Shown here in pieces: positions 7,271 to 64,000 of a stretch of 64,000 nucleotides of DNA. The position numbers and the translations under genes are program-made. The DNA comes from Octopus vulgaris (lineage: Eukaryota), in contig OX597815.1 in NCBI GenBank assembly GCA_951406725.2, positions 127,844,001-127,908,000 on the forward strand, in the 5' to 3' direction. A model generated the notes under the pieces. It had not been told where the DNA came from. It searched no databases and worked only from the letters and a program-made list of their open reading frames with translations. Positions within the stretch are counted from its first letter, which is position 1, and every line of letters begins with the position of its first letter.

Positions 7271-8528
7271 TATTGTGAATGAAGAATATTGGAAGTATAC
7301 TGGTAAGCCAAAATTATGCAAATCTACAAAAGTAACATGATGTTATGGGTAAAAGATTATATTTTGTAAGTGAATTTGTGTGTAATGTGACATTTTGTGA
7401 CCAAATGAAAATGACAAAAGTTGATCTACTTGACATAGAGTGGATAGGACTGTTCAAATTGTGGAATATGCCCATAAGTGTTTTGCGTGGGAATATAGCT
7501 GGTTCAGTTGAAGGTTCAAATGTGGCTGAGGGATTGAGATAAAACAAAAATCTTTATTTCCAGATGTTTTTTCAGATGACTTGGGCTGCTGCACAAAAAT
7601 GAAGGCAAAAATTGTAATAAAACAAAGTGCAACACCTTTCTTTAAGCCAAAATGTAATGTACTGTTCACGGTGTTAGAACAGGTAAATAAGGGACTTGAA
7701 AGATTTGAAAGCCTAGGAATAACCAAGAAGACTCAGAAGTTAGACTTCTTGGGGGCATACTTACAAATCCAAGTAGAAGAAGAATTTTCACACTTATTAA
7801 CCATTAATACACACCGTGGCTTATTTAAATTTAAATAGCTTCCCTTCATTGTAAAAGTGGCCCCTTCTATATCTCAACAAGTAAAGGATACAATGCTGCT
7901 TGATAGTAATATTGCTATCGCCTACTTAGATAATATCCTAATAAAAAGTGAATTACTTGAACAACACATACAACACGTAAAGAGGATATTCGTAAAGATA
8001 AAGGAATGAGATTTTAAGTTAAGTGAAGATGTGCAAGTACTTTCTGAACGATAAATAAATACTTGTGCCAGATAATAGATAAAAATGGATGGAAACTGGC
8101 TCCATCTAGAGCATCTATGATAAAAAAGAATATGCCCACACCAAATCATGTGACTATGCTACAAGTATTTTTAAGTTTAGTAAATTACTACTAAATTCAT
8201 ATTCCCAATATACACAATGTAAAGGCTCTGTTCAAAGATTTGTCAAAGAAAAGGGCTCTGATGCCGCAGTCAATGCACATAATTGCATACATACATACCG
8301 GCAGCAACCATAAACATTTACTGTAAGTATCAGAGCACTTTAGCTCTTATTTCTAGCACTGTAGGTGTTCTAACAGTCACTGTTATATCTAACTAGCAGT
8401 GTAACCCAGCCTTGCCCAGGATTAAGTTACGATTATTAAGCTAATCAAGTTCTTTATTTCAAACCAAACTAAGTAATATAGACGTCAAATTTGGGCGAAA
8501 TCTCTTGAAATTAGTTATATTATATATA

Positions 8529-10812
8529 TCATCATCATCATCATCATCATTTAGCGTCCACTTTCCATGCTAGCATGGGTTGGACGGTTCAACTGGGGTC
8601 TGTGAAGCTGGAAGGCTTCGTCAGGCCCAGTCAGATCTGGCAGTGTTTCTACGGCTGGATGCCCTTCCTAACGCCAACCACTCCGTGAGTGTAGTGGGTG
8701 TTTTTTACGTGCCACCTGCACAGGTGTCAGACAGAGCTGGCAAACGGCCACGAACGGATGGTGCTTTTACGTGTCACTGGCACGGGGCCAGGCGATGCTG
8801 GCAACGGACACGAACGGATGGTGCTTTTACGTGCCACCGACACGGGGCCAGACAGAGCTGGCAAACGGCCACGAACGGACGGTGCTTTTATGTGTCACCA
8901 GCACGGGGGCCAGCCGAGGCTGGCAATGGACACGAACGGATGGTACTTTTACGTGCCACCGACACGGGGCCAGACAGAGCTGGCAAACAGCCACGAACGG
9001 ACGGTGCTTTTACGTGTCACCGGCACGGGGGGCAGACGAGGCTGGCAGCGGACACAAACAGATGGTTCACTTAACCCCTGCTTTCTGATATATGATTTGA
9101 TTTTGATTGTTCTCACTGGTCTTGCCGGGTCTTCTGACGCACAGCATACTTCCATAGGTCTCGGTCTCTGGTCATTTCCTTGGTGAGACCTAGAGTTCGA
9201 AGGTCATGCCTCACCACCTCGACCCAGGTTTTCCTGGGTCTACCTCTTCCACAGGTCCCCTCAACTGCCAGGGCGTGGCACTATTTCACACACCTATCTT
9301 CATCCATTCTCACCACATGACCATACCAGCGAAATCGTCTCTCTTGCACACAACATCTGATGCCTCTTAGGTCCAACTTTTCTCTCAAGGTACTTACACT
9401 CTGTCGACTATGAACACTGACATTACACATCCAACGGAGCATACTAGCTTCATTTCTTGCGAGCTTACGCATGTCCTCAGCAGTCACAGCCCAAGTTTCA
9501 CTACCATGTAGCATGGCTGTACGTACACATGCATCATACAGTCTGCCTTTTACTCTGAGCGAGAGGCCTTTTGTCACCAGCAGGGGTAAGAGCTCTCTAA
9601 ACTTTGCCCAGGCTATTCTTACTCTAGCAGTTACACTTTCAGCACACCCACCCCCGCTACTGACTTGATCACCTAGGTAGCGGCAGCTATCAACTACTTC
9701 TAGTTTTTCTCCCTGAAACGTGATAGAAGTTGGTCTCTGCATATTTTCAGAGTTTATTGCTCCTGAGCATCTGCCACAGATAAAAACTATTTTCCTAGTT
9801 AGTCTTCCTTTGACATTGCTACATCTCTTATGTGTCCATAGCTTACATTTGGTGCATCTTATAGAGTTTCTACCTATGCCTTTTCTACAGATCGAGCAAG
9901 GCCATCTACCTGAAGGCGTTTGTGATTGGTTTACCTTCCTACTTATTAGGACTTTGGTTTTGGCTAGGTTGATTCTAAGGCCCTTCGATTCTAAACCTTG
10001 CTTCCACACCTGAAACTTCTCCTCCAGTTCTGATAGAGACTCAGCAATTAGAGCAAGGTCATCAGCATAGAGGAGCTCCCAGGGGCATCCAGTCTTGAAT
10101 TCCTCCGTTATTGCCTGGAGGACTATGATAAATAGGAGGGGACTGAGGACTGAACCTTGGTGGACCCCAACCTCTACCCTGAATTCTTCACTGTACTCGG
10201 TGCCAACCCTCACCTTACTAGCAGCGTCTCTGTACATGGCTTGTACAGCTCTCACTAACCATTCATCTATCCCTAGTTTCCTCATTGACCACCAGATAAG
10301 GGATCGGGGGACCCTGTCGAAGGCTTTCTCCATATCGACAAAAGCCAGGTATAGGAGCTTGTGTTTGGCTAGGTATTTCTCCTGCAGCTGTCTTACCAGG
10401 AAAATAGCATCAGTAGTACTTTTCCCTGGCACGAACCCAAACTGCATCTGATCTAAGCTCACTCTCTCTCTAATTTGTTGGGCTATAACCCTCTCCATAA
10501 CCTTCATTACCTGATCTAGCAGCTTGATACCCCTGTAGTTATTTGTATCTAGGGCGTCACCTTTACCTTTGTAGCAGTTGACTATTATGCTGCTACACCA
10601 GTCATTGGGAATGACTCCTTCATGTATCACCTGGTTAACTATACAGGTGACTTGGCTATAGCCAGCACTACCAGATATTTTGAGCATCTCTGCAGTAATT
10701 CCTGATGGGCCTGGGGCTTTCCCTGTTTTCATGCTTGTAATTGCCTTATCTACTAAGGAACTGTCAACTCGGATTGCTGGTCCCTCTTTTGGGTCAACAT
10801 TCGGCAGACTCT
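8529..10812 (-). mobile_element. Young 5'-truncated RTE-clade LINE
   Basis: Long open RT frame, 3' UTR with ~60-bp tandem units and (GAT)n tail at 8529-8550. Possible low-complexity TSD tatattatatata at 8516-8528 and 10818-10830. Confidence 0.95.
9281..10812 (-). pseudogene. RTE reverse transcriptase ORF (N-terminally truncated, premature stop near the C-terminus) with internal PHD finger
   Basis: KAPGPSGI, NYRGIKLL, QFGFVPGKST, FVDMEKAFDRV, GVHQGSVLSP, LLYADD, CSIC..CTKC..HKRC..CGRC, RYLG. The stop after RCVK interrupts the KKC..VEG end seen in other copies. Confidence 0.9.
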
Positions 10813-11704
10813 CTTTATATATTATATATAATATAATACAAATATATATGGGCAACAGACACAAACACACATACACACACATACGTACATACACCTATTG
10901 CATGTTTTGTCCACGCATACATGTTCATAAACAGAAATGAATGGAAAAAATGTTGTTAAATTTGTAGATTAACACTCGCACAATTTTCACTAAGAAAAAA
11001 AATCATTTTTTTTTTGCGTGGAATCAACTACTCTGGCCTCAAAACCCTTTTTGTGGTCCGTGAAACGGAGTGGGGTGGGTGGAAGCGTCGCAAATTGTAC
11101 CCATTTATATTGTGTAATTCACTGACAAATTGTTACTCACCTCTTTGTTTCTTTGTTGTTGAATAAATGGATTGTCAAAAAAACACTTTTTTACTCGCCG
11201 TAAAATAAAAACAAAACTCTTTCGCACCCAAAGCAATGTGTGTGAGAGAGAGAGGAGGGAGAAAGATGAACGATTTGAAATAAATAAATGATTTTAAATA
11301 AATATATTGTAATTGTTGTGTGAGAAAGTATATATACTATGATTATAAGATATAGTGTGTCTTTCAAAAACAAAAAATCAAAACATTTTACATTTTATTT
11401 TTATGAACGTAGTCACTTACTCTCTCTCTCTCTCCCTCCCCCTCTCACTTCGTCTTTCCCATGAAACTCTCTGCCTCCTTCTTCCACTTTTCTTTATCTT
11501 ATTTTTTTTGTTAGACGCCATCAAAAAAGCTATGGCTGATATTTATTATGGCTAAAAGTTATGGTTGAAAATAGATTTTTACCCTATCTGTGGGTGCCTC
11601 GGGAAAAAATATGTTGACAAAACCCAGATAGGATGTTGACGAATGTCCTCCTAAAATTTGAGCGACATTTGTGCTAATTTGTGGACGTGCATAAATTACA
11701 ATCA

Positions 11705-13826: not shown

Positions 13827-13885
13827 AAGAAGAAGAAGAAGAAGAAGAAGAAGAAGAAGAAGAAGAAGAAAAAGAAGAAGAAGAC

Positions 13886-14817
13886 GACAACACAACAAAA
13901 GCTATAAAACAAATGAAATCCAAACTAAAACTAGAACAGAAACGGACCAAGATAAAACAATGGCAAGAAAAGCCCCTTCATGGTAAATACTGGACTAAAC
14001 TAAATGCAAAAGAAATAGACAAAGAAAAATCCCAGCAATGGTTGAGAAGCTCAGGACTCAATGCAGAGACAGAGGGATTTTTAATTGCAGCACAAGACCA
14101 AAGCCTCCCCACCAGAAATTACCAAAAACATATAATGAAAAGAAATATAACAAGTAACTGCAGAGTATGTGGAGATGGACAAGAAACAATAAATCATATT
14201 ATCTCTGGCTACCCAGTCCTGGCTAAGAAGGAATATATTCACAGACATGACAGAGTTGGGACCTACATACACTGGAAGCTATGCCAACATTATGGAATAA
14301 CAACAGAAAAAAGATGGTATAGGCACACACCAGAAAAGGTCACAGAAAACGAGAAAGCAACCATACTCTGGGATATGCCAATACACACAGATAGAGAAAT
14401 TAAGGCCAACAGACCAGATATAGTTGTCAGAGAATATGAAAAAAAATACTTTCTAATTGATGTATTAATACCAGCAGATGACGTGTCTCTAAAAGAAATG
14501 GAGAAACTTTCAAAATACAAAGACCTGGACATAGAGGTAACTATAATGTGGAATCTGAAAACAGAAACAATTCCTATCAAAGTAGATGCATTAGGCATGA
14601 TAAAAAAATGTTAAGACAAATACATAACAAAAACACCAGGACTTACAAACACATATAACATACAGAAAATTGCACTATTAGGCACTGCACACATCCTACG
14701 CAGAACACTTTCAATACAGTAACCATCAGAGCATCACAACAAATCACAGCACATACCCAAGGCACACAGAGCTGTGCTTGGTAGTGAAGTGAAAGCACGC
14801 TATAAAAATAAAACTAC
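13886..14817 (+). mobile_element. R4/Dong-clade non-LTR retrotransposon, 5'-truncated, well preserved
   Basis: KPLHGKY, ETEGFLIAAQDQ, CRVC..ETINHIISG, RHD, NRPDIVV, LIDV, EKLSKYKDL; flanked by (TAA)n/(GAA)n upstream and (TAA)n downstream. Confidence 0.9.
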
Positions 14818-14819
14818 TA

Positions 14820-14869
<50 letters not shown>

Positions 14870-14994
14870 GTGACAACAAAAGAATGAGACCTTGATATTT
14901 GATAAATAGAGGATTATTTAATGACAACTTACTGTTTGTTCTTAATTATAATATATGTGTGTGTGTGTGTATAATATATATATATAGATATATA

Positions 14995-17900
14995 TTTCCA
15001 TCTTTCAGTTTCCATCTTTCAGCCATTTGGCGGTCTTTTTTCCTCCTCTTACCATTACGATTCTACAATTTAAATTCCCAATTCAACTAACTTACTTCTT
15101 CAATTTCAACTCCCGACCGATGTCCGCAGCAAGTTCTTTAAAAATTTATCTTAATATTTCTATTCGTTGTTACTACGTTTATTCATACATTGTTACGAAA
15201 ATTTAACCTTTTAAGGCTACTTTCAAGCCTTCGCCATAACTTGATTTATCTTTCTATCTCTCTCTCTACAAAATTTAACCTTAGGCGAGGCTACCTCAAG
15301 CCGTAATCCCATCTCTTCCCATCTCTTTCCATCTTTCAGCCATTTGGCGGTCTTTTTTTTCCTCCTCTTACCATTACGATTCTACAATTTAAATTCCCAA
15401 TTCAACTAACTTACTTCTTCAATTTCAACTCCCGACCGATGTCCGCAGCAAGTTCTTTAAAAATTTATCTTAATATTTCTATTCGTTGTTACTACGTTTA
15501 TTCATACATTGTTACGAAAATTTAACCTTTTAAGGCTACTTTCAAGCCTTCGCCATAACTTGATTTATCTTTCTATCTCTCTCTCTACAAAATTTAACCT
15601 TAGGCGAGGCTACCTCAAGCCGTAATCCCATCTCTTCCCATCTCTTTCCATCTTTCAGCCATTTGGCGGTCTTTTTTCCTCCTCTTACCATTACGATTCT
15701 ACAATTTAAATTCCCAATTCAACTAACTTACTTCTTCAATTTCAACTCCCGACCGATGTCCGCAGCAAGTTCTTTAAAAATTTATCTTAATATTTCTATT
15801 CGTTGTTACTACGTTTATTCATACATTGTTACGAAAATTTAACCTTTTAAGGCTACTTTCAAGCCTTCGCCATAACTTGATTTATCTTTCTATCTCTCTC
15901 TCTACAAAATTTAACCTTAGGCGAGGCTACCTCAAGCCGTAATCCCATCTCTTCCCATCTCTTTCCATCTTTCAGCCATTTGGCGGTCTTTTTTCCTCCT
16001 CTTACCATTACGATTCTACAATTTAAATTCCCAATTCAACTAACTTACTTCTTCAATTTCAACTCCCGACCGATGTCCGCAGCAAGTTCTTTAAAAATTT
16101 ATCTTAATATTTCTATTCGTTGTTACTACGTTTATTCATACATTGTTACGAAAATTTAACCTTTTAAGGCTACTTTCAAGCCTTCGCCATAACTTGATTT
16201 ATCTTTCTATCTCTCTCTCTACAAAATTTAACCTTAGGCGAGGCTACCTCAAGCCGTAATCCCATCTCTTCCCATCTCTTTCCATCTTTCAGCCATTTGG
16301 CGGTCTTTTTTTCCTCCTCTTACCATTACGATTCTACAATTTAAATTCCCAATTCAACTAACTTACTTCTTCAATTTCAACTCCCGACCGATGTCCGCAG
16401 CAAGTTCTTTAAAAATTTATCTTAATATTTCTATTCGTTGTTACTACGTTTATTCATACATTGTTACGAAAATTTAACCTTTTAAGGCTACTTTCAAGCC
16501 TTCGCCATAACTTGATTTATCTTTCTATCTCTCTCTCTACAAAATTTAACCTTAGGCAGAGGCTACCTCAAGCCGTAATCCCATCTCTTCCCATCTCTTT
16601 CCATCTTTCAGCCATTTGGCGGTCTTTTTTCCTCCTCTTACCATTACGATTCTACAATTTAAATTCCCAATTCAACTAACTTACTTCTTCAATTTCAACT
16701 CCCGACCGATGTCCGCAGCAAGTTCTTTAAAAATTTATCTTAATATTTCTATTCGTTGTTACTACGTTTATTCATACATTGTTACGAAAATTTAACCTTT
16801 TAAGGCTACTTTCAAGCCTTCGCCATAACTTGATTTATCTTTCTATCTCTCTCTCTACAAAATTTAACCTTAGGCGAGGCTACCTCAAGCCGTAATCCCA
16901 TCTCTTCCCATCTCTTTCCATCTTTCAGCCATTTGGCGGTCTTTTTTCCTCCTCTTACCATTACGATTCTACAATTTAAATTCCCAATTCAACTAACTTA
17001 CTTCTTCAATTTCAACTCCCGACCGATGTCCGCAGCAAGTTCTTTAAAAATTTATCTTAATATTTCTATTCGTTGTTACTACGTTTATTCATACATTGTT
17101 ACGAAAATTTAACCTTTTAAGGCTACTTTCAAGCCTTCGCCATAACTTGATTTATCTTTCTATCTCTCTCTCTACAAAATTTAACCTTAGGCGAGGCTAC
17201 CTCAAGCCGTAATCCCATCTCTTCCCATCTCTTTCCATCTTTCAGCCATTTGGCGGTCTTTTTTCCTCCTCTTACCATTACGATTCTACAATTTAAATTC
17301 CCAATTCAACTAACTTACTTCTTCAATTTCAACTCCCGACCGATGTCCGCAGCAAGTTCTTTAAAAATTTATCTTAATATTTCTATTCGTTGTTACTACG
17401 TTTATTCATACATTGTTACGAAAATTTAACCTTTTAAGGCTACTTTCAAGCCTTCGCCATAACTTGATTTATCTTTCTATCTCTCTCTCTACAAAATTTA
17501 ACCTTAGGCGAGGCTACCTCAAGCCGTAATCCCATCTCTTCCCATCTCTTTCCATCTTTCAGCCATTTGGCGGTCTTTTTTTTCCTCCTCTTACCATTAC
17601 GATTCTACAATTTAAATTCCCAATTCAACTAACTTACTTCTTCAATTTCAACTCCCGACCGATGTCCGCAGCAAGTTCTTTAAAAATTTATCTTAATATT
17701 TCTATTCGTTGTTACTACGTTTATTCATACATTGTTACGAAAATTTAACCTTTTAAGGCTACTTTCAAGCCTTCGCCATAACTTGATTTATCTTTCTATC
17801 TCTCTCTCTACAAAATTTAACCTTAGGCGAGGCTACCTCAAGCCGTAATCCCATCTCTTCCCATCTCTTTCCATCTTTCAGCCATTTGGCGGTCTTTTTT

Positions 17901-20900
17901 CCTCCTCTTACCATTACGATTCTACAATTTAAATTCCCAATTCAACTAACTTACTTCTTCAATTTCAACTCCCGACCGATGTCCGCAGCAAGTTCTTTAA
18001 AAATTTATCTTAATATTTCTATTCGTTGTTACTACGTTTATTCATACATTGTTACGAAAATTTAACCTTTTAAGGCTACTTTCAAGCCTTCGCCATAACT
18101 TGATTTATCTTTCTATCTCTCTCTCTACAAAATTTAACCTTAGGCGAGGCTACCTCAAGCCGTAATCCCATCTCTTCCCATCTCTTTCCATCTTTCAGCC
18201 ATTTGGCGGTCTTTTTTTCCTCCTCTTACCATTACGATTCTACAATTTAAATTCCCAATTCAACTAACTTACTTCTTCAATTTCAACTCCCGACCGATGT
18301 CCGCAGCAAGTTCTTTAAAAATTTATCTTAATATTTCTATTCGTTGTTACTACGTTTATTCATACATTGTTACGAAAATTTAACCTTTTAAGGCTACTTT
18401 CAAGCCTTCGCCATAACTTGATTTATCTTTCTATCTCTCTCTCTACAAAATTTAACCTTAGGCGAGGCTACCTCAAGCCGTAATCCCATCTCTTCCCATC
18501 TCTTTCCATCTTTCAGCCATTTGGCGGTCTTTTTTCCTCCTCTTACCATTACGATTCTACAATTTAAATTCCCAATTCAACTAACTTACTTCTTCAATTT
18601 CAACTCCCGACCGATGTCCGCAGCAAGTTCTTTAAAAATTTATCTTAATATTTCTATTCGTTGTTACTACGTTTATTCATACATTGTTACGAAAATTTAA
18701 CCTTTTAAGGCTACTTTCAAGCCTTCGCCATAACTTGATTTATCTTTCTATCTCTCTCTCTACAAAATTTAACCTTAGGCGAGGCTACCTCAAGCCGTAA
18801 TCCCATCTCTTCCCATCTCTTTCCATCTTTCAGCCATTTGGCGGTCTTTTTTCCTCCTCTTACCATTACGATTCTACAATTTAAATTCCCAATTCAACTA
18901 ACTTACTTCTTCAATTTCAACTCCCGACCGATGTCCGCAGCAAGTTCTTTAAAAATTTATCTTAATATTTCTATTCGTTGTTACTACGTTTATTCATACA
19001 TTGTTACGAAAATTTAACCTTTTAAGGCTACTTTCAAGCCTTCGCCATAACTTGATTTATCTTTCTATCTCTCTCTCTACAAAATTTAACCTTAGGCGAG
19101 GCTACCTCAAGCCGTAATCCCATCTCTTCCCATCTCTTTCCATCTTTCAGCCATTTGGCGGTCTTTTTTCCTCCTCTTACCATTACGATTCTACAATTTA
19201 AATTCCCAATTCAACTAACTTACTTCTTCAATTTCAACTCCCGACCGATGTCCGCAGCAAGTTCTTTAAAAATTTATCTTAATATTTCTATTCGTTGTTA
19301 CTACGTTTATTCATACATTGTTACGAAAATTTAACCTTTTAAGGCTACTTTCAAGCCTTCGCCATAACTTGATTTATCTTTCTATCTCTCTCTCTACAAA
19401 ATTTAACCTTAGGCGAGGCTACCTCAAGCCGTAATCCCATCTCTTCCCATCTCTTTCCATCTTTCAGCCATTTGGCGGTCTTTTTTCCTCCTCTTACCAT
19501 TACGATTCTACAATTTAAATTCCCAATTCAACTAACTTACTTCTTCAATTTCAACTCCCGACCGATGTCCGCAGCAAGTTCTTTAAAAATTTATCTTAAT
19601 ATTTCTATTCGTTGTTACTACGTTTATTCATACATTGTTACGAAAATTTAACCTTTTAAGGCTACTTTCAAGCCTTCGCCATAACTTGATTTATCTTTCT
19701 ATCTCTCTCTCTACAAAATTTAACCTTAGGCGAGGCTACCTCAAGCCGTAATCCCATCTCTTCCCATCTCTTTCCATCTTTCAGCCATTTGGCGGTCTTT
19801 TTTCCTCCTCTTACCATTACGATTCTACAATTTAAATTCCCAATTCAACTAACTTACTTCTTCAATTTCAACTCCCGACCGATGTCCGCAGCAAGTTCTT
19901 TAAAAATTTATCTTAATATTTCTATTCGTTGTTACTACGTTTATTCATACATTGTTACGAAAATTTAACCTTTTAAGGCTACTTTCAAGCCTTCGCCATA
20001 ACTTGATTTATCTTTCTATCTCTCTCTCTACAAAATTTAACCTTAGGCGAGGCTACCTCAAGCCGTAATCCCATCTCTTCCCATCTCTTTCCATCTTTCA
20101 GCCATTTGGCGGTCTTTTTTTCCTCCTCTTACCATTACGATTCTACAATTTAAATTCCCAATTCAACTAACTTACTTCTTCAATTTCAACTCCCGACCGA
20201 TGTCCGCAGCAAGTTCTTTAAAAATTTATCTTAATATTTCTATTCGTTGTTACTACGTTTATTCATACATTGTTACGAAAATTTAACCTTTTAAGGCTAC
20301 TTTCAAGCCTTCGCCATAACTTGATTTATCTTTCTATCTCTCTCTCTACAAAATTTAACCTTAGGCGAGGCTACCTCAAGCCGTAATCCCATCTCTTCCC
20401 ATCTCTTTCCATCTTTCAGCCATTTGGCGGTCTTTTTTCCTCCTCTTACCATTACGATTCTACAATTTAAATTCCCAATTCAACTAACTTACTTCTTCAA
20501 TTTCAACTCCCGACCGATGTCCGCAGCAAGTTCTTTAAAAATTTATCTTAATATTTCTATTCGTTGTTACTACGTTTATTCATACATTGTTACGAAAATT
20601 TAACCTTTTAAGGCTACTTTCAAGCCTTCGCCATAACTTGATTTATCTTTCTATCTCTCTCTCTACAAAATTTAACCTTAGGCGAGGCTACCTCAAGCCG
20701 TAATCCCATCTCTTCCCATCTCTTTCCATCTTTCAGCCATTTGGCGGTCTTTTTTCCTCCTCTTACCATTACGATTCTACAATTTAAATTCCCAATTCAA
20801 CTAACTTACTTCTTCAATTTCAACTCCCGACCGATGTCCGCAGCAAGTTCTTTAAAAATTTATCTTAATATTTCTATTCGTTGTTACTACGTTTATTCAT

Positions 20901-21692
20901 ACATTGTTACGAAAATTTAACCTTTTAAGGCTACTTTCAAGCCTTCGCCATAACTTGATTTATCTTTCTATCTCTCTCTCTACAAAATTTAACCTTAGGC
21001 GAGGCTACCTCAAGCCGTAATCCCATCTCTTCCCATCTCTTTCCATCTTTCAGCCATTTGGCGGTCTTTTTTCCTCCTCTTACCATTACGATTCTACAAT
21101 TTAAATTCCCAATTCAACTAACTTACTTCTTCAATTTCAACTCCCGACCGATGTCCGCAGCAAGTTCTTTAAAAATTTATCTTAATATTTCTATTCGTTG
21201 TTACTACGTTTATTCATACATTGTTACGAAAATTTAACCTTTTAAGGCTACTTTCAAGCCTTCGCCATAACTTGATTTATCTTTCTATCTCTCTCTCTAC
21301 AAAATTTAACCTTAGGCGAGGCTACCTCAAGCCGTAATCCCATCTCTTCCCATCTCTTTCCATCTTTCAGCCATTTGGCGGTCTTTTTTCCTCCTCTTAC
21401 CATTACGATTCTACAATTTAAATTCCCAATTCAACTAACTTACTTCTTCAATTTCAACTCCCGACCGATGTCCGCAGCAAGTTCTTTAAAAATTTATCTT
21501 AATATTTCTATTCGTTGTTACTACGTTTATTCATACATTGTTACGAAAATTTAACCTTTTAAGGCTACTTTCAAGCCTTCGCCATAACTTGATTTATCTT
21601 TCTATCTCTCTCTCTACAAAATTTAACCTTAGGCGAGGCTACCTCAAGCCGTAATCCCATCTCTTCCCTTCTCTTTCCATCTTTCAGCCATT
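14995..21692 (+). repeat. Tandem array of 21 near-identical 317-bp monomers plus short partial units
   Basis: ttccatctttcagcc recurs at 15010, 15327 ... 21675. Differences seen are T-run length (6-8), one extra A at ~16559 and one substitution in the last unit. Confidence 0.98.
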
Positions 21693-22614
21693 GGTGAACA
21701 CTGTTCTCACCGCCAACACCACCAATACTGGTGAACACTGTTCCTCACCCCCCACCACCAATACCAGTATACCCTGTCCTCACCATCTACACCGGATACG
21801 CCTTACTCATCTACACCGGGTACGCCCTACTCCCTCCTCCTCCCCCCACTACCCCTTCTCCTCATATGCTTTCACTGTGAAAAGACAAGCTGCTAGCGCC
21901 ATAGCTCATCAACTGCCCACCGATCTTACGCTTCCTCCTGACACTGCTTCATTCCGACTATCCCCCTTTAGCACCCTCCCGCCTCGTAATATCCTACGTT
22001 TTTATTTCTTAGGAACCTACACCAACCCTTCCTGCCATCGTTCCTCCTTACCCCAACCTTCCCCACTGGTTGCTCCCCTATATTACCCACCTCAACTGGA
22101 CCCCCCTCTCCCCAACTCAACTCTAGAATATCTGTATTCTTTCCTCTACCTAATAACGTTACTCAGTGACGATAACGAATGTCTTTATTTCTTAGAAACC
22201 TACACCAACCCTTCCTTACTCAGTGACGATAAATGCTGTGACTACAAAGACCCGGGCTGCTTTCTGCAGCAATTCCACATACCCCCTACTCATTATAAGT
22301 ACCCCGGATCCCCAAAGTACCCTGGATCCCCAAAGTACCCCGGACCTCGTTGCCCCCGTGCCGCTGACACGTTAAAATGCTCGAACCGATCGTGACGATG
22401 CCGGACCCTCCGGCCCCTGTGCAGGTGGCACGTAAAAAGCACCCAATCCACTCACGGAGTGGTTGGCGTTAGGAAGGGCATCCAGCCGTAGAAACTCTGC
22501 CAGATTCAGACTGGAGCCTGGTGCGGCCCCTGGCTTCCCAGACCCGGTCAAACCGTCCAACCCGTGCTAGCGCGGAAAGCGGACGTTAAACGATGATGAT
22601 GATGATGATGATGA

Positions 22615-22617
<3 letters not shown>
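21693..22617 (+). mobile_element. C-rich leader-like segment joined to an RTE 3' UTR and (GAT)n tail (non-autonomous RTE derivative)
   Basis: ccaccaccaatac and accggata motifs as in the RTE leader at 58200-58360; 22360-22617 is the RTE terminus ending gacgttaaac(gat)n; no RT or APE sequence in between. Confidence 0.75.
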
Positions 22618-22661
<44 letters not shown>

Positions 22662-22797
22662 GATAAGGAAATAATAATAATAAAAAGTGACAACAAAAGA
22701 ATGAGACCTCGATATTAGATAAATAGAGGCTTGTTTTATGACAACTTACTGTTTGTTCTAAATTATAACATATACAGTATATATATATATATAAAGA

Positions 22798-56622: not shown

Positions 56623-56722
56623 NNNNNNNNNNNNNNNNNNNNNNNNNNNNNNNNNNNNNNNNNNNNNNNNNNNNNNNNNNNNNNNNNNNNNNNNNNNNNN
56701 NNNNNNNNNNNNNNNNNNNNNN
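56623..56722. other. Assembly gap (100 N)
   Basis: Direct reading. Confidence 1.
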
Positions 56723-57269
56723 CACAGATGATATCAGCCACATCATAAGTAGTTGTCTGAAAATGTCATCATGGCATTATCTACCAATGAGACATGATGT
56801 TGTAGCTAGGACACTCTATAATGAAATCCATTGGAAGAATAACCCCAAGGCCAAAGAAATAAGAACCTACAGTATGGTAGAAGCCATAGCCACTCATAAT
56901 AAAAAGGAATACTGATGGAATGTACCAGTGAAGACCTCAATAAAATGTAAACACAGCAGACCTGATTTGAGATAGAGAAGAGAAACTGTGCACAGCTGTG
57001 GAAATTAGCTGCCCAGCAGATGTTAACATAAAGCTGACAATCAGTGAAAATGAGAACACCTACACTGAACTATTGAGAAATCTGCAGTTACTCTATCCAG
57101 ATTACAAGTTCAGGTTTATACCTGTAATTCTTGGGGCCCTGAGATATATAACACACCACCTAAATACCAATCTTGAGAAATTAGGCTTCTCAAAATCAGA
57201 GAGGAGAAAGCAAATTCGAAAACTACAGATCAAATTTATCACTGGAACTGTAAAAATCTATAAAACTTT
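56723..57269 (+). mobile_element. R4-like RLE retroposon, left part; its 3' UTR resumes at ~61767-61945
   Basis: Colinear with 35115-35660; agcatgtctagatatgcaactatg resumes after the RTE tail and ends aaataaaactgaacaatga(CA)n. Confidence 0.85.
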
Positions 57270-60200
57270 GTAGTTGACCCTTCAATATATAACTTCCTAA
57301 TCTCTCTCTCTCTCTCTCTCTGCCTTCGTTTCACCTTAATTCATCATCTAATTTTCTAAATGGAATCTCCTAAATTAACCCTTGCTTGTTCATGGTGGCT
57401 AAGTACTTTTCGTACTATTCTCTTATTCCTTCCCACTCACTATGGCTTCTTATGCTACTCTGTTACTATCATTGCTATTGTCTTCAGCACCCTCCATAAT
57501 GTCCACTTCCAGCCATAGCATGTCTATAAAACACTTACTCACAAGCTTTCTTCCCTGCTTTTCACACAACTCTTTCCAATGCAAACGTTTCTTAGATGCC
57601 CAGTTATGCATTGCTAAACTAAGATATTCTCTCATTTTTTCGACCTTTTCATGCATTCATCCATCATCACTATTAATACTTTAATGTGTATTTACTAATA
57701 CCTGCTTTCATAAGCTAATTATTTAAAATGAAAAGAAGCGAGCTGGCAGAAATGTCAGCACGCTGGATGAAATGCTTAGCAGAAGTTCATCTGTCTTTAC
57801 GTTCTGAGTTCAATTTCCACCGAGATCAATTTTGCCTTTCATCCTTTTGAAGTCGATAAATTAAGTACCAGTTATGCACTGGGGTCAATTTAATTGACTG
57901 AACTCCTCCCACCAAAATTTTGGGCCTTGTGCCTAGAGTAGAAAAGAATTATTTCAATTGACCGTTCAATATATTACTTCCTAATCTCTCTCCCTCAGCC
58001 TTCATTTCACCTTAATTCTTCATGTAATTTTCTTGATGAAATTTCAAGTTGACTACATATTTTTTCATACCAACTCTCTGAATCAACCCTTGCTTGTTTG
58101 TTCCACCTTAATTCTTCATGTAATTTGTTTATTTCACCTTAATTCTTCATGTAATTTTCTAAATGAAATCTCCTAAATTAACCCTTGCTTTTTTGTGGTG
58201 CGCCCACCCATTCCCAGCCCCACCACCAATACTTGATATCTCTCTCTTCTCTTACCACCAATACCGGATATCTCTCTCTTCTCCCACTACCATTACGGGA
58301 TCTCTCTTCTACCACCATTACCGGATCTCTCACTTCTCCTACCACCATCGTCAGATATCACTCTTCTCTCACAGGAAAACCTATCCCCTCTATCATACCT
58401 GCAATAGAGTGCTTAAGCTCAAACTAGTTCTGCAGAATAGTAAAGCCACAATTATCTCTGCCTATGCCCCACCAGTGGGCCTACCAAACAATCAGAAGGA
58501 CCACTTTTATGATACCCTTCTATAGGCTACCTTAAAGACGAGTGGCAATGACTTCATCTTTGTGGCTGGAAATTTTAATGGGCAAGTCAGATGGTAATAT
58601 GGTATCTTCCACGGTATTCACAGGGGTCATAGAATTGGTTCCCGAAATGAAGAGGGAACTAGGCTACTAGAGTTCTGTGATGCATGCAACCTATTAATCT
58701 GCAACACTAACTTCAGGAAGCCAGACAGCCACCTGATAACCTATCAATCAGGTGACTTTGCTAGCCAAATCGATTTTATCCTCACCAGGCAGTGGGATGC
58801 AAGATTGCTCTTAAATACAAAGACCCTTCCTGGTGAAGAATGCACCCCCCCCCCCCAGCATAGACTAGTCATGAGTCACATTATAGACTCGAGGCCAGAA
58901 GGATGCCAGGAAGCAGACCAATCCAGAAAAGAAGGCTTTGGAAGATAAAGAATCCTTCACATATTCAGAGATTTAGGGACATCCTCATTGAGAAATTTGA
59001 TGAAAGGGAAGAGGAGCTAGACTTTGGACATAGAGGGTAACTGGGAATTCCCATAGGACAGCTTACTGAGCACCACAGATCAAATCTGTGGCTAGTGTAA
59101 AGTCCCTTCCAGACCTAGAGTAACGTGGTGGTGGAATAATACAGTAGACAAGGCCATTAGAGCAAACAAACAGGCCTGGAAAGCCTGGAAGAGTGGGGGT
59201 AGCAAGGAACTGTACCAGATAGCCAGAAGGGAGGCTGGGAGACAGGTATACAAAGCTAAGGGAAAGGCAGAAAAGAAGAGGTTTTCCGATGTTCAGCGAT
59301 GTGAGGACCAAAGAACTGAAGTATTTTGGATTGCAAGACAGTATGTGAGAAAAAATTATGATGTCACAGGGGAGAAATGTGTCAGCATGGATGACGGTGC
59401 ACTTACTTTTAAAGATTCTGCAAAGAAAGAGGCTTGGAGAAGCCATTACAAAAGACTGCTAAATGTGGAGAAGGAATGGAAGAAGGAGAGTCTGCTAAAG
59501 GTTGACCAAATTGAGAGACCAGCTACTTGAAACGACAGTGCCCAGGTAGATAAAGAAATTAAGGATATGAAGTTAAGAAAAGCACCCAGCCCATCAGGAA
59601 TCATTGCTGAGATGCTTAAAATATCTGGTGTTGTGTATTTTGGCCCAGTCACCTGTATTGTAAACCTGGTAGTTTACAAAGGAGTCGTACCCAATGACTG
59701 GTGTAGCAGCCCCATAGTCAACTGCTACAAACGTAATAGTGATACTTTAGATAGAAATAACTACAGGGGTATCAAACTGCTGGATCAGGTGATGAAGGTC
59801 ATGAGAGGGTGATAGCCCAACTAATTAAGGAGAGAGTTTGCAGTTTGGTTTTATGCCAGGTAGAAGCACCACTGATGCTATATTCCTGGTGTGGCAACTG
59901 CAGGAGAAATACCTAGCAAAAGATAAACCCCTATACTTGGCTTTTGTTAACTTAGAGAAAGCCATTGACAGGGTGGGTAATGTGGAAACTAGGGATTGAC
60001 AAGTGGTTAATAAGAGCTGTAGAAGACCTTTACAGGGATGCCGTTTGTAAGGTAAGGGTCGCCAATGATCATAGTGAAGAATTCCAGGTAGAAGTAGAGG
60101 TTCACCAAGGATCAGCCCTAAGGACTCTCTTATTCATCATAGTCCTCCAGGTAATAACACAGGAATTCAAGACAAGTTGCCTCTGGAAGCTCCTCTATGC

Positions 60201-61763
60201 TGATGATCTTGATCTCATAGCAGAATCACTACAAGATCTAGAGAAGAAATTTCAGGTGGAAGCAAGATTTAGAATTGAAGGGCCTTAGATTCAATGTTGC
60301 AAAACTAAAGTCCCAGTAAGTAGAAAGGTGAACACATCATTAACCCCTTCAGGTAGATGGCCCTGCACAATCTGTAGAAAAGTTGTAGGTAGAAACTCCA
60401 TAAGATGTACCCAGTGTAAGCTATGGATGCATAAGAGGAGAAGCAACATCAAAGGAAGGTTAACTGGGAAGACAGCTTTTGTGTGCAGCGGATGCACAGG
60501 GGTAATAAACACCACAGATGCTCAGAAAACTGATTCCATCACATGCCAAGGAAAGAAACTAGAAGTAGTTGATAGCTTGCTCTACCTAGGTGACCAAGTC
60601 TGTAGTGAGGGTGGATGCTCGAACAGTGTTGCTACTAGAATAAGAATAGCCTGGACAAAGTTCAGAAAGCTGTACTGGTGACAAAGGCCACTTGCTGAGA
60701 GTGAAAGATAGATTGTACGATGCATGTGTGCATACTGCCATGCTACATGGCAGTGAAACATGGGCTGTGACTGCTGAAGACATGCGCAGGCTTGAAAGAA
60801 ATGAAGCTGGTATGATCCGCTGGATATATAATGTCAGTGTGTGCACACGACAGAGTGTAAGCACCCTTAGAGAAATGTTGGACATAAGAAGCATCAGATG
60901 TGATGTGTAAGTGAGACCACTGTGATGGTATGGTTATGTGCTGCATATGGATGAGGAGAGCTCAGTGAAGAAGTGTCACCTCCTAAGAGTGAAAGGAACC
61001 CATGGAGGAGGGAGATCCAGGAAGACATGGGACAAGGTAGTGAAGCATGACCTTCGAATGTTGGGCAATGATGAAAGACCGAGACCTCTGGAGATACTGT
61101 GATTGAGAAGACCAAGCAAGTAAAGTGACACCACAGCCATAGCCTACACCAGTGTCGCATAACCAGCCCATTTAAAAAGTATCTTTGAATCGTTGGGCGA
61201 TATTCCGTGCATGAAGAGACCTATTGAGTCAAGTAAAATCAAATCACAATCAAATGGAAATTGTAGTTGTGGCAGCTGCCAGTGCCATCTGGCTGGCTCC
61301 CATGCTGGTGGCATGCAATAAGCACCATGCATGCATGGGTTATTGCCATTGCTACCTGACTGGCTCCCTGTGCTGGTGGCATGTAAAAAGCACCATTCAA
61401 ACATGATTGATGCTAGCCTCCCTGCCCCAACTGGCTCCTGTGCTGGTAGCATGTAAAAAGCACCATCCAAACATGATTGATGCTAGTCTCCCACCCCAAC
61501 TGGATCCTGTGCCGGTAGCATGTAAAAAGCACCATCCGAACATGGCCGATGCCAATGCCACCTGATTGGTTCCCATGCTGGTGGCATGTAAAAAGCACCC
61601 ACTACGCTCTTAGAGTGGTTGTGTTAGGAAGGGCATCCAGCTGTAGAAACACTGCCAGATCAGACTGGTGCCTGGTGCAGCCTCCTGACTTGCCAATCCC
61701 CAGTCAAACCATCCAATCCATGCCAGCATGGAAAACGGATGTTAAACGATGATGATGATGATG
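57270..61763 (+). mobile_element. Long RTE LINE with tandem 5' monomers, C-rich leader, partial APE, RT-PHD and 3' UTR
   Basis: LKLKLVL..IISAYAP, GNFNG, RNEEGTRLLEFC, NYRGIKLL, LLYADD, WPCTIC..CTQC..H..CSGC, (GAT)n tail; bounded by the two halves of the RLE element. Confidence 0.9.
57725..57946 (+). mobile_element. tRNA-derived SINE with 8-bp TSD aattattt
   Basis: gcgagctggcagaa...ctgagttcaattt head; aattattt at 57717-57724 and 57947-57954. Confidence 0.8.
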
Positions 61764-61944
61764 AAGAGCATGTCTAGATATGCAACTATGTGCATGAGAA
61801 TACACGCATAAAGCAGAATTACAAATCTGCACACACACATACACATACATACAAACAAAATTACCCTGTTGATGATGTTGGATCTAGGTTAGAAACTGGC
61901 TTTTTCTCTATTGGCAAGAAATCTTGAAATAAAACTGAACAATG

Positions 61945-61976
<32 letters not shown>

Positions 61977-62029
61977 ACACATTTCCTCTGTTACTCTTCT
62001 ACTCTTGGACGCATTTTGGCTGCAATCTG

Positions 62030-62640
62030 TGTACATACTGGGATACTGACGTTGATGTTGCTACAATTTAATTAACCTTCATTCTTTGAAGCTGCAACTC
62101 TCATTTGCATTAGTTACTATGAAGTAAGTTCATCAGGAATATCAGATAACAAGACATCCAGTTGTCTTTTAAAAACATTTATATCCACACCAAAAAGATT
62201 TCCCAAGCTTTTTGGCAAAAATGTGAAGTGCAATGGACCTTTGAAACCTAAACAATGCACTATCTGGTTCAAACTTTACATAGCAAAAGTTGAAATTTTG
62301 GCATTGTGCACTAGTGTCCTTTACAAGGACTTTTGTAGTTTTCAATGACAAAGGTTGTTTCAAGCTCTTTGAAGTTCTTCAAGATGTATATCTTTCTAAT
62401 CTTCACTTCAAGGAAGTCAGTAATTCCTCTGATGCATTGAGGCAAATATCAGGGTGTAGTAGCATTAGATTGCTTCAAGTTATGAGGTTAATTTCATTCA
62501 ATGTGCTTACAATAATTGAGAGCAGCATATACAGGGCATGATGGGTATTTCAGAAAATTTACTTATCGGTATATTATTTTCTTCAAAGCAGTTAAAAAGG
62601 TTGTTTTTTCTAGATCCATCATAGTAAATAACATGTTAAC
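62030..62640 (-). mobile_element. Decayed CR1/L2-group LINE C-terminal fragment
   Basis: KGPLHF..LPKSL.NL..INVFKRQLDVLLSDIPDE...VAAS, typical of LINE ORF2 ends. Confidence 0.55.
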
Positions 62641-62949
62641 ATGAGAAATGAAAAGATATGCATTCATTGTGTAGAACAAAGTGATTTAGAAATTGCCAAC
62701 TGTCCAAATGTTGCAAGATCCTCCCATCACTCTTCTAACTATGGCACTACTCATCCCTATCAATATGTACTTTCCACTGATCAGCCCTCTTTCCTCCTAC
62801 CCTTTCGATTTCCCTCAACTTTAACAACTCTTAGATATATTTTACAATCTTTTTTATTATACAAAGTTCAGATGGAATTGAAAGACTCTAGCAGAATGTT
62901 TCAATTGTATCAAAGAGGAAAAAAAAAAATTCTAAATGTTCAGACATAA

Positions 62950-63660
62950 TAAGGATACCATAATTCATCCAACAGGCGCAAAACATTGATGATTCTGAAA
63001 ACATTGAGGCTCACCACCAAAGAACCATAGGTGTTGGAATGGATTATCAAAATCGTGGTCCACAAAGACATTTAATACAAGTCATATGTACTGAGGAGAA
63101 GCTGATTTATGTCAGCGAAAACAGGAAAACCATTTGATCTATGCCAAGTGGTTACTTAATGAGGTAAAAACCTTCACAAACATAGCATGTTTGGTTCTTT
63201 GATGAGAAAAACTTCAGTATGTGCAGATCCTTCTGTTATTCATTGAGTAATGAACAATAAGTTTCCAGCAACTATGACGGTTTTAGGAGTGGTGAGTAAT
63301 GAAGGTCATGTCACACAACTTCACATCTTTTAACAAGATATTAGAATTAAAGCTGTTGGATACATCGAAGTGTGGAAGACATTTGTTAAGCCTTGGATAG
63401 GTGAAGTGTCCAGTGAAAGGCCATGCATATTTCAACAAGACTCAGTACCATCTAACAAAATCCAAGAATCAATGCCAGACAATCTAGACAATCTTTAGTC
63501 ATATGGCACCTATCTTGTGACATACACAATCACTAGATTTAAATCCCATTGATTACATTTGGGTTATTGTTGCAAGGGAGACTAATCAATTTACTCAAGA
63601 TATCACAGCTTCACTGAACACTGCCATTGTCCAGGTGATATCCAAAAAAAGGCCTGTTTA
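62950..63660 (+). mobile_element. Tc1/mariner (DD37D-like) fossil
   Basis: FFDEKNF, VLGVVSNEGHV, FQQDSVPS, DLNPIDY; related to 44560-45698. Confidence 0.7.
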
Positions 63661-64000
63661 GTGTAGATATGTCAAAAATCTGTGACTCATCAATTTTTCT
63701 TCCCCACCTCTGATTTCCCTCATCAAAGTTGAAGGCATGTTCTTAGAATAATCTTATAAAAATGCTTATTGAGAGAGAACTTGTGCAGGAATTTTTATTA
63801 AAATACATTTGGCTTTTGTTAGATTAGAGTTATTTATTGAATTACCCCCTATGAACATACATACCTACTTACAAATCTAACAAGCCCCCCCACACACACA
63901 CACACACACATACAAAAGCATCTCTTTTACCTTTGTAACAATTGACTATGACACCTTCCTGTAAAATCTAATTAACCACAGGGGTTAGTACACTTGCATC

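Follow-up and report, generated by a model that had tools for sequence, protein, structure and literature searches.

Bipartite non-autonomous RTE retroelements form a known class that includes Bov-A, RTESINE1/2, WALLSI3 and RTE-N2_Lch, with tabulated lengths of ~200–600 bp (Kojima 2018, PMC5786205). In these elements the 5' untranslated region (UTR) of a long interspersed nuclear element (LINE) is joined to its 3' end by internal deletion; they have no open reading frame (ORF), end in a microsatellite tail and share both ends with a partner LINE. Promoters built from tandem monomers have been regarded as peculiar to mouse L1 among LINEs, and how lost units are replaced there in the face of continual 5' truncation is still unsettled (PMC6454616). 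Rodent L1 promoters mostly hold 2–3 units, 99% have ≤10 and the longest has 50 (PMC6454616, PMC5381506), and younger mouse L1 subfamilies carry more monomers, giving an inverse relation between age and unit number (PMC9022269). Here we analyze a 64,000-nucleotide stretch of Octopus vulgaris DNA (the window; contig OX597815.1, positions 127,844,001–127,908,000 of the forward strand) that contains a gene-less retroelement made of 21 tandem 317-bp monomers, a C-rich leader and a LINE-type 3' end. The element is real, young and mobile, and is a new combination of these two known kinds.

Other carriers of tandem arrays have been described, among them the long terminal repeat (LTR) elements of Lathyrus, whose internal tandem repeats gave rise to satellites (PMC7004042), and array-bearing Helentrons of oyster (PMC7492417). 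As in octopus, a mobile element brings tandem arrays of varying length to scattered places in the genome, and some of these arrays grow longer. The octopus carrier differs in being a non-LTR element with the array as its 5' end, and in showing no expansion into element-free satellite. RTE target patterns are covered elsewhere (PMC6007223), and the excerpted text of a review of element-derived satellites contains no whole-word mention of RTE (PMC9659126). Both ingredients of the octopus element, bipartite RTEs and monomer promoters, are thus known, and no paper was found that combines them, describes tandem monomers at the 5' end of an RTE-type LINE or deals with this octopus family, in a search whose scope stopped short of most subscription papers and of Repbase/Dfam. 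The family might already stand in a recent octopus repeat library (PMC13282606).

Results and Discussion

Within the array, 16 of the 21 units are identical; of the rest, four vary in T-run length or have one extra base, and the fifth has a single substitution. The array passes without a break into the C-rich leader, the LINE-type 3' end, (GAT)9 and (AT)21. This layout, set between TA tracts, had been proposed in the original prediction from the letters alone, and both Tandem Repeats Finder (TRF) and the sequence bear it out. The predicted CpG content of ~11 per monomer also holds, with 11 CpGs in 20 units and 10 in the remaining one; the observed/expected ratio is 1.41 in the array versus 0.23–0.37 in the flanks. 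The sole long open frame of the element (21655–22395) gave no match in a Pfam search. There is therefore no reverse transcriptase (RT) or apurinic-type endonuclease (APE) domain in the element, again as predicted. Of the LINE ORF, the element retains the ATG (22179) and ~150 nt at the end.

The parent was found in the same genome. Twenty loci were chosen for long open frames: all contained the element's 3' part, 16 its leader as 5' UTR, and 14 related monomers in front. This LINE has a single ORF of ~1,090–1,115 aa with Exo_endo_phos and RVT_1 domains and a weak PHD match in Pfam. In one 1,091-aa ORF, PF03372/PF14529 and PF00078 occur together directly after the leader, with no ORF1. Its short 3' UTR ends in (GAT)n. 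ORF identity among 15 copies is 98.9–100%, and the exact UTR/ORF junction motif occurs 90 times, against no occurrence of the reversed-pattern control. Two blocks of the window align with LINE locus L141 (loci and contigs are cited by our own L and C handles): 21693–22183, corresponding to 5' UTR plus five ORF bases (95% identity), and 22233–22618, corresponding to ORF end, 3' UTR and tail (379/403, 94%, including one 17-bp gap). Relative to L141, 3,153 bp are absent from the element, and a 49-bp re-copy of leader pieces lies at the join. These alignments show the origin of the element as a bipartite (internal-deletion) derivative of a young single-ORF LINE with APE and RT.

The monomers belong to the same ancestry. 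Among the LINE 5' ends inspected, 35/54 bear monomers and four bear ≥10; these are 73–93% identical to the 317-bp unit and lie upstream of the same leader. L244 reaches ~42 units with no gap, beginning after a TA tract, and L231 has ~38 units up to an assembly gap. Part of the predicted assignment as a non-autonomous RTE derivative is thereby established, in that the element is a young gene-less LINE derivative whose parent is in hand. RTE-clade membership of the parent is suggested by its architecture (single ORF, APE and RT, microsatellite tail); its RT matched only L1, R2 and group II intron RTs in the PDB. A protein 47% identical to that of the LINE (P0031) is labelled as coming from a bacterial metagenome-assembled genome, probably through eukaryotic contamination in that record.

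Two other LINEs were tried as parent and rejected. The RT-bearing family at window 9281–10894 encodes a protein 75% identical to that of the true parent, and its 20 loci have tails ~85% identical and match neither the monomer nor the 5' leader. The octopus RTE LINE RTE-2_OV resembles the parent in that endonuclease and RT lie in a single ORF of comparable size (1,109 aa; PMC9115989). It has a C2H2 finger, and the parent a PHD-like insert. It is a different family: its four published primers match no fetched locus at ≤2 mismatches, and no element motif occurs in the supplement of that paper outside files 5–8.

The exact deletion junction occurs 172 times in the assembly (reversed-pattern control, 0), and exact monomer cores occur 1,429 times. 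The 317-bp monomer had 185 candidate places in its own genome, 23 of which were scored, and other arrays were taken from the 150 listed of 237 matches. It had been predicted that the 317-mer would be linked elsewhere to leader and tail. This is what was found, since 17/17 other arrays among the matches listed, picked by monomer alone, are followed on their own strand by leader and tail; the copies unlinked to leader or LINE sequence that would have refuted the prediction did not turn up among them. In a further check on C1, not selected by likeness to the window locus, 15 monomer clusters were taken from the first 100 listed exact matches, and the 14 inspected all have the leader motif just downstream. 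Junction copies were collected on C1–C5 (n=57, all listed there), of which 41 have monomers and 16 stop in the leader. Monomer number varies, as also predicted. The median is 2.65 units among 40 monomer-bearing copies (one duplicate of the window locus left out, two counts taken from extended sequence); 33 copies have ≤6 units and 7 have 13–35, including 5 with ≥20. Unit periods are 248–338 bp in derivatives and 333–392 bp in LINEs. No inspected copy has a unique head sequence upstream of the monomers, and an Rfam search over 20900–22700 gave no match to a tRNA- or 5S-derived head.

Several individual copies deserve mention. At L065 5548–6121 (C7), one of the 17 other arrays, a second internal deletion has a 29-bp monomer piece at the new junction, which suggests templated repair or a template switch. 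L072 (C25:1–5836) has an array of at least 15 units of a type found only there, running off the contig start with the 5' end outward, and may be either an assembly break or a chromosome-end insertion. Two derivatives lie head to tail across an N gap at L181/L166 (C19:47,678,278–47,691,237), and at L144 (C11) a derivative lies ~1.4 kb upstream of a LINE's monomers; both cases may reflect clustering or assembly duplication. L140 871–4660 (C10) is a LINE 5' array with a higher-order pattern of alternating unit variants and two partial duplications. At L143 9300–9894 (−) another deletion derivative of the LINE joins leader positions 1–370 to the 3' part; because its junction differs, deletion derivatives arose more than once.

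Target-primed reverse transcription typically leaves staggered 5' ends, inversions, a tail and target repeats, and the derivative copies carry such marks. Their 5' ends are staggered. One of the 17 other arrays (L075, on C17) has its 5' part inverted, with the inversion inside the array, and a similar inversion is found in the LINE at L131. An AT-type dinucleotide tract follows 37/54 copies, compared with 15% of AT positions in the window. Flanking repeats of 17–35 bp can be recognized at L189, L201 and L068, whose target tracts contain interruptions. The insertions are young. Nearest-neighbor divergence is 0.10% and 0.22% in the two subfamilies, and private changes per copy are 0.27 in the subfamily with the 49-bp re-copy versus 0.63 in the other (p=0.049). 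No empty paralogous site was found in C2:127,720,001–127,844,000 or C2:127,421,000–127,561,000.

We consider it probable that the element is a gene-less internal-deletion copy of this LINE that has kept the monomer array, leader and 3' end, is copied in trans by the LINE enzyme, and uses its monomers as a promoter in the manner of mouse L1. Mobilization in trans is likely, given the shared 3' end and the youth of the copies. The monomers likely act as a repeated internal promoter because of their position and the L1Md parallel. The 5' ends of the copies are unevenly distributed along the monomer, with a peak at 120–160 (p=0.0006; n=55 after exclusion of four doubtful ends and of four other loci), resembling the truncation profiles of L1Md (PMC6454616). 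Contigs from four runs guessed to be RNA cover monomer and leader; none of the contigs listed spans the deletion junction by 31 letters in both directions. Junction-spanning pieces also occur in DNA sequenced from a second organism (X18), with 17 letters on the short side, which is a hint only.

In the proposed cycle, transcription would start in a monomer. The LINE protein would then bind the 3' UTR and prime on (TA)n, probably by pairing with the (GAU)n tail. Reverse transcription would run back through the leader into the array, and stop or complete at a variable unit. Arrays would lengthen by DNA block duplication (unequal exchange) in some source lineages, and long arrays would be handed on to new insertions. 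More broadly, we tentatively put forward, as a reading somewhat more likely wrong than right, that a non-L1, single-ORF invertebrate LINE independently evolved a mouse-L1-style monomer promoter, and that the LINE and its gene-less parasite move arrays of 10–40 units (7–18 kb insertions) as RNA, scattering ready-made satellite-like arrays over the genome.

The distribution of array lengths bears on the last of these steps. Arrays of ≥12 units occur in 7/26 copies of the younger subfamily, which carries the 49-bp re-copy, and in 0/30 of the older one (Fisher p=0.003). Long arrays are thus confined to the younger subfamily, and inheritance from source copies is therefore favored over a slow increase in length with age. 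Only 0–2 private substitutions are found over the 12–34 units of the youngest long arrays, and the type A unit is found in long arrays on C1, C3, C7 and C29. Uniformity within an array is the usual state, but the unit type depends on locus and sublineage. In L231, variants are shared by units 4/14/20, 5/15/21, 9/26 and 10/27, at offsets of 10–18 units. This indicates block duplication, which may have happened in place or in a source copy. No conversion to a true satellite was observed: the reliable arrays reach 11–15 kb at most, all inspected arrays are attached to the leader, and the only array >15 kb is suspect. The original prediction is upheld in taking the monomer region for the 5' part of an RTE-like LINE, as monomers lie in the parent 5' UTR; its proposal that satellites are seeded in this way goes beyond the data. 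Its interpretation as a whole is supported.

Several observations weigh against the reading that we favor. The arrays of ≥10 units fall into at least eight unit types, each uniform within its array, and a two-class mixture fits array lengths better than one exponential (1/400 bootstraps); together these point to repeated fast re-expansion, for which simple copying of long templates offers no explanation. Flanking repeats of ≥7 bp are missing from 20/62 copies. The 5'-end peak coincides with the AT-richest part of the monomer, and microhomology with the TA target fits it equally well. The monomer has no match to GCCATNTT (YY1). None of the inspected LINEs contains the exact 317-bp unit, the best reaching 92.8%, and the present helper LINE is for this reason deduced from the 3' end. 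Finally, long arrays are hard to assemble, and the window locus itself is present twice in the assembly.

This duplication concerns a 39-kb array of ~125 units at C2:127,450,017–127,489,378, which was considered as proof of in-place growth and rejected as a duplicate assembly of the window locus. The right flank of the duplicate (C2:127,450,017–127,490,396) equals window 22619–56622 (99.6% over 34 kb) as far as the N gap of the window, where it stops. On the left the duplicate has a flank unlike that of the window, its distal ~80 units mix types, and a further gap is only 3.6 kb away. Of the two left flanks, that of the window is probably the true one, given the old 104-bp repeat that it has in common with the right flank. 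The count of 21 versus ≥40 clean units at the two versions is a hint of an allelic length difference only. The gap occupies window 56623–56722; on its left, 22619–56622 duplicates C2:127,490,392–127,524,363 (99.6%), and on its right, 56723–64000 duplicates C2:127,771,420–127,788,629 (98.4%). These are probably haplotype or overlap duplications in the assembly.

The strongest alternative holds that only 1–6 monomers are inserted from RNA, and that long arrays grow later at each locus by unequal exchange, like a variable number tandem repeat, so that the retroelement merely plants the seed. We regard this as possible, if doubtful. The 18-kb insertion at L244 is long for a single reverse-transcription event. 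The two length classes among monomer-bearing copies fit such growth, as do unit types F, O, K and P, each found at one locus only, and the block-duplicated, patchy variants inside the arrays of L231, L244, L063 and L200. Unequal crossing-over has also been given as the origin of the 50-monomer mouse L1 promoter (PMC6454616). Growth in place is harder to reconcile with the older subfamily, which has had longer to grow and has no long arrays, with the near absence of private substitutions from the youngest long arrays, and with type A filling long arrays on several contigs.

Arrays could instead be built during insertion, with the RT re-priming on or jumping between monomer-bearing RNAs so that many units are made from short templates. 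This would account for uniform arrays of many unit types within <1% divergence, and for variants of L244 that are fixed in other loci (L234, L132 and L142), as template switching would give. The same mosaics are, however, expected from gene conversion or assembly mixing in long arrays, and the 10–18-unit offsets in L231 are simpler as DNA exchange. We consider this route unlikely.

The monomer could also be a ribozyme-bearing, retrozyme-like unit that spreads via circular RNA. Its size is within the range of metazoan retrozymes. HDV-like ribozymes have been predicted in some RTE 5' ends (PMC5786205). Against this, an Rfam scan of 20900–22700 (E≤5) gave no ribozyme family and nothing near the gathering score, no hammerhead or HDV core motif is present in the monomer, and the monomer folds no better than its shuffles (z=0.07), making this origin very improbable. 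An independent satellite with a LINE tail beside or inside it by chance can practically be dismissed, for all 17 arrays picked by monomer are linked to leader and tail, intact LINEs have the same arrangement and one junction is common to 172 copies.

The features of the window locus are collected in Table 1. The 104-bp repeat found on both flanks (14853–14956 and 22670–22773) was rejected as a target-site duplication because its copies are only 93% identical to each other, and the repeat is therefore older than the element. Just left of the element, a different LINE is represented by its 3' end (13874–14866, +), which has a zf-RVT-like match and an (AAT)n tail and which we take to resemble Dong/R4 elements. 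A second young LINE family has a 5'-truncated copy at window 8528–10894 (−); the 3' UTR of this family includes a 61-bp tandem repeat present in different numbers at different loci. A decayed full-length LINE of the same group as the parent lies at 57950–61767 (+). Over 190 bp, its 5' region and the leader of the young LINE are 66% identical, and the C-rich leader is on this account old.

Table 1. Coordinates of the retroelement and its target tracts in the window
Feature	Position	Strand	Evidence
GT/TA tract, 5' side (target)	14955–14994	.	Sequence
14-bp duplication of first monomer bases, 5' junction; element start	14995–15008	+	TRF period 14 × 2 at 14995–15022; sequence
21 tandem 317-bp monomers, homologous to parent LINE 5' UTR monomers	15009–21692	+	TRF period 317, 21.1 copies, 99% matches; LINE monomers 73–93% identical, periods ~333–392 bp
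C-rich leader, the unique part ('tether') of the LINE 5' UTR, reaching 5 nt into the ORF (ATG 22179)	21693–22183	+	467/492 identical to LINE locus L141; matched in 16/20 LINE loci
49-bp re-copy of two upstream leader pieces, younger-subfamily marker, ending at deletion junction	22184–22232	+	Self-match 21998–22033 vs 22181–22216; in 26/56 copies on C1–C5
LINE ORF end (with 18-bp repeats) and 3' UTR	22233–22591	+	Matched in 20/20 LINE loci; L141 match
(GAT)9 tail	22592–22618	+	TRF
(AT)21 target tract, 3' side	22617–22658	.	TRF; 37/54 copies end in such tracts

Conclusions

The octopus element shares with bipartite RTEs the join of 5' UTR and 3' end by internal deletion, the lack of an ORF, the microsatellite tail and the partner LINE. 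Those elements usually keep the LINE 5' end, whereas the octopus element has no fixed 5' end and carries from 0 to ~35 units (≤12 kb). With mouse L1Md, the octopus LINE shares the order of CpG-rich monomers, tether and ORF, a variable unit number, a 5' end inside a unit and higher unit numbers in younger subfamilies. It differs in its single ORF without ORF1, (GAT)n tail, TA targets and 250–390-bp units. Long arrays are also far commoner in octopus, as 7/40 monomer-bearing derivatives have ≥10 units while 99% of L1Md promoters have ≤10. Promoter activity has been demonstrated for L1Md monomers; in octopus it is predicted.

The octopus family adds to the mouse L1 monomer promoters another case, which is independent, very young and notable for arrays that are far longer; it comprises ~170 gene-less copies and ~90 parent copies, with subfamily-specific units. 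The competing models of array growth, by unequal exchange, after insertion or during reverse transcription, can be tested in this family with long reads. The family is a source of assembly errors in the octopus genome, and offers a snapshot of a possible route from LINE 5' UTR to satellite DNA.

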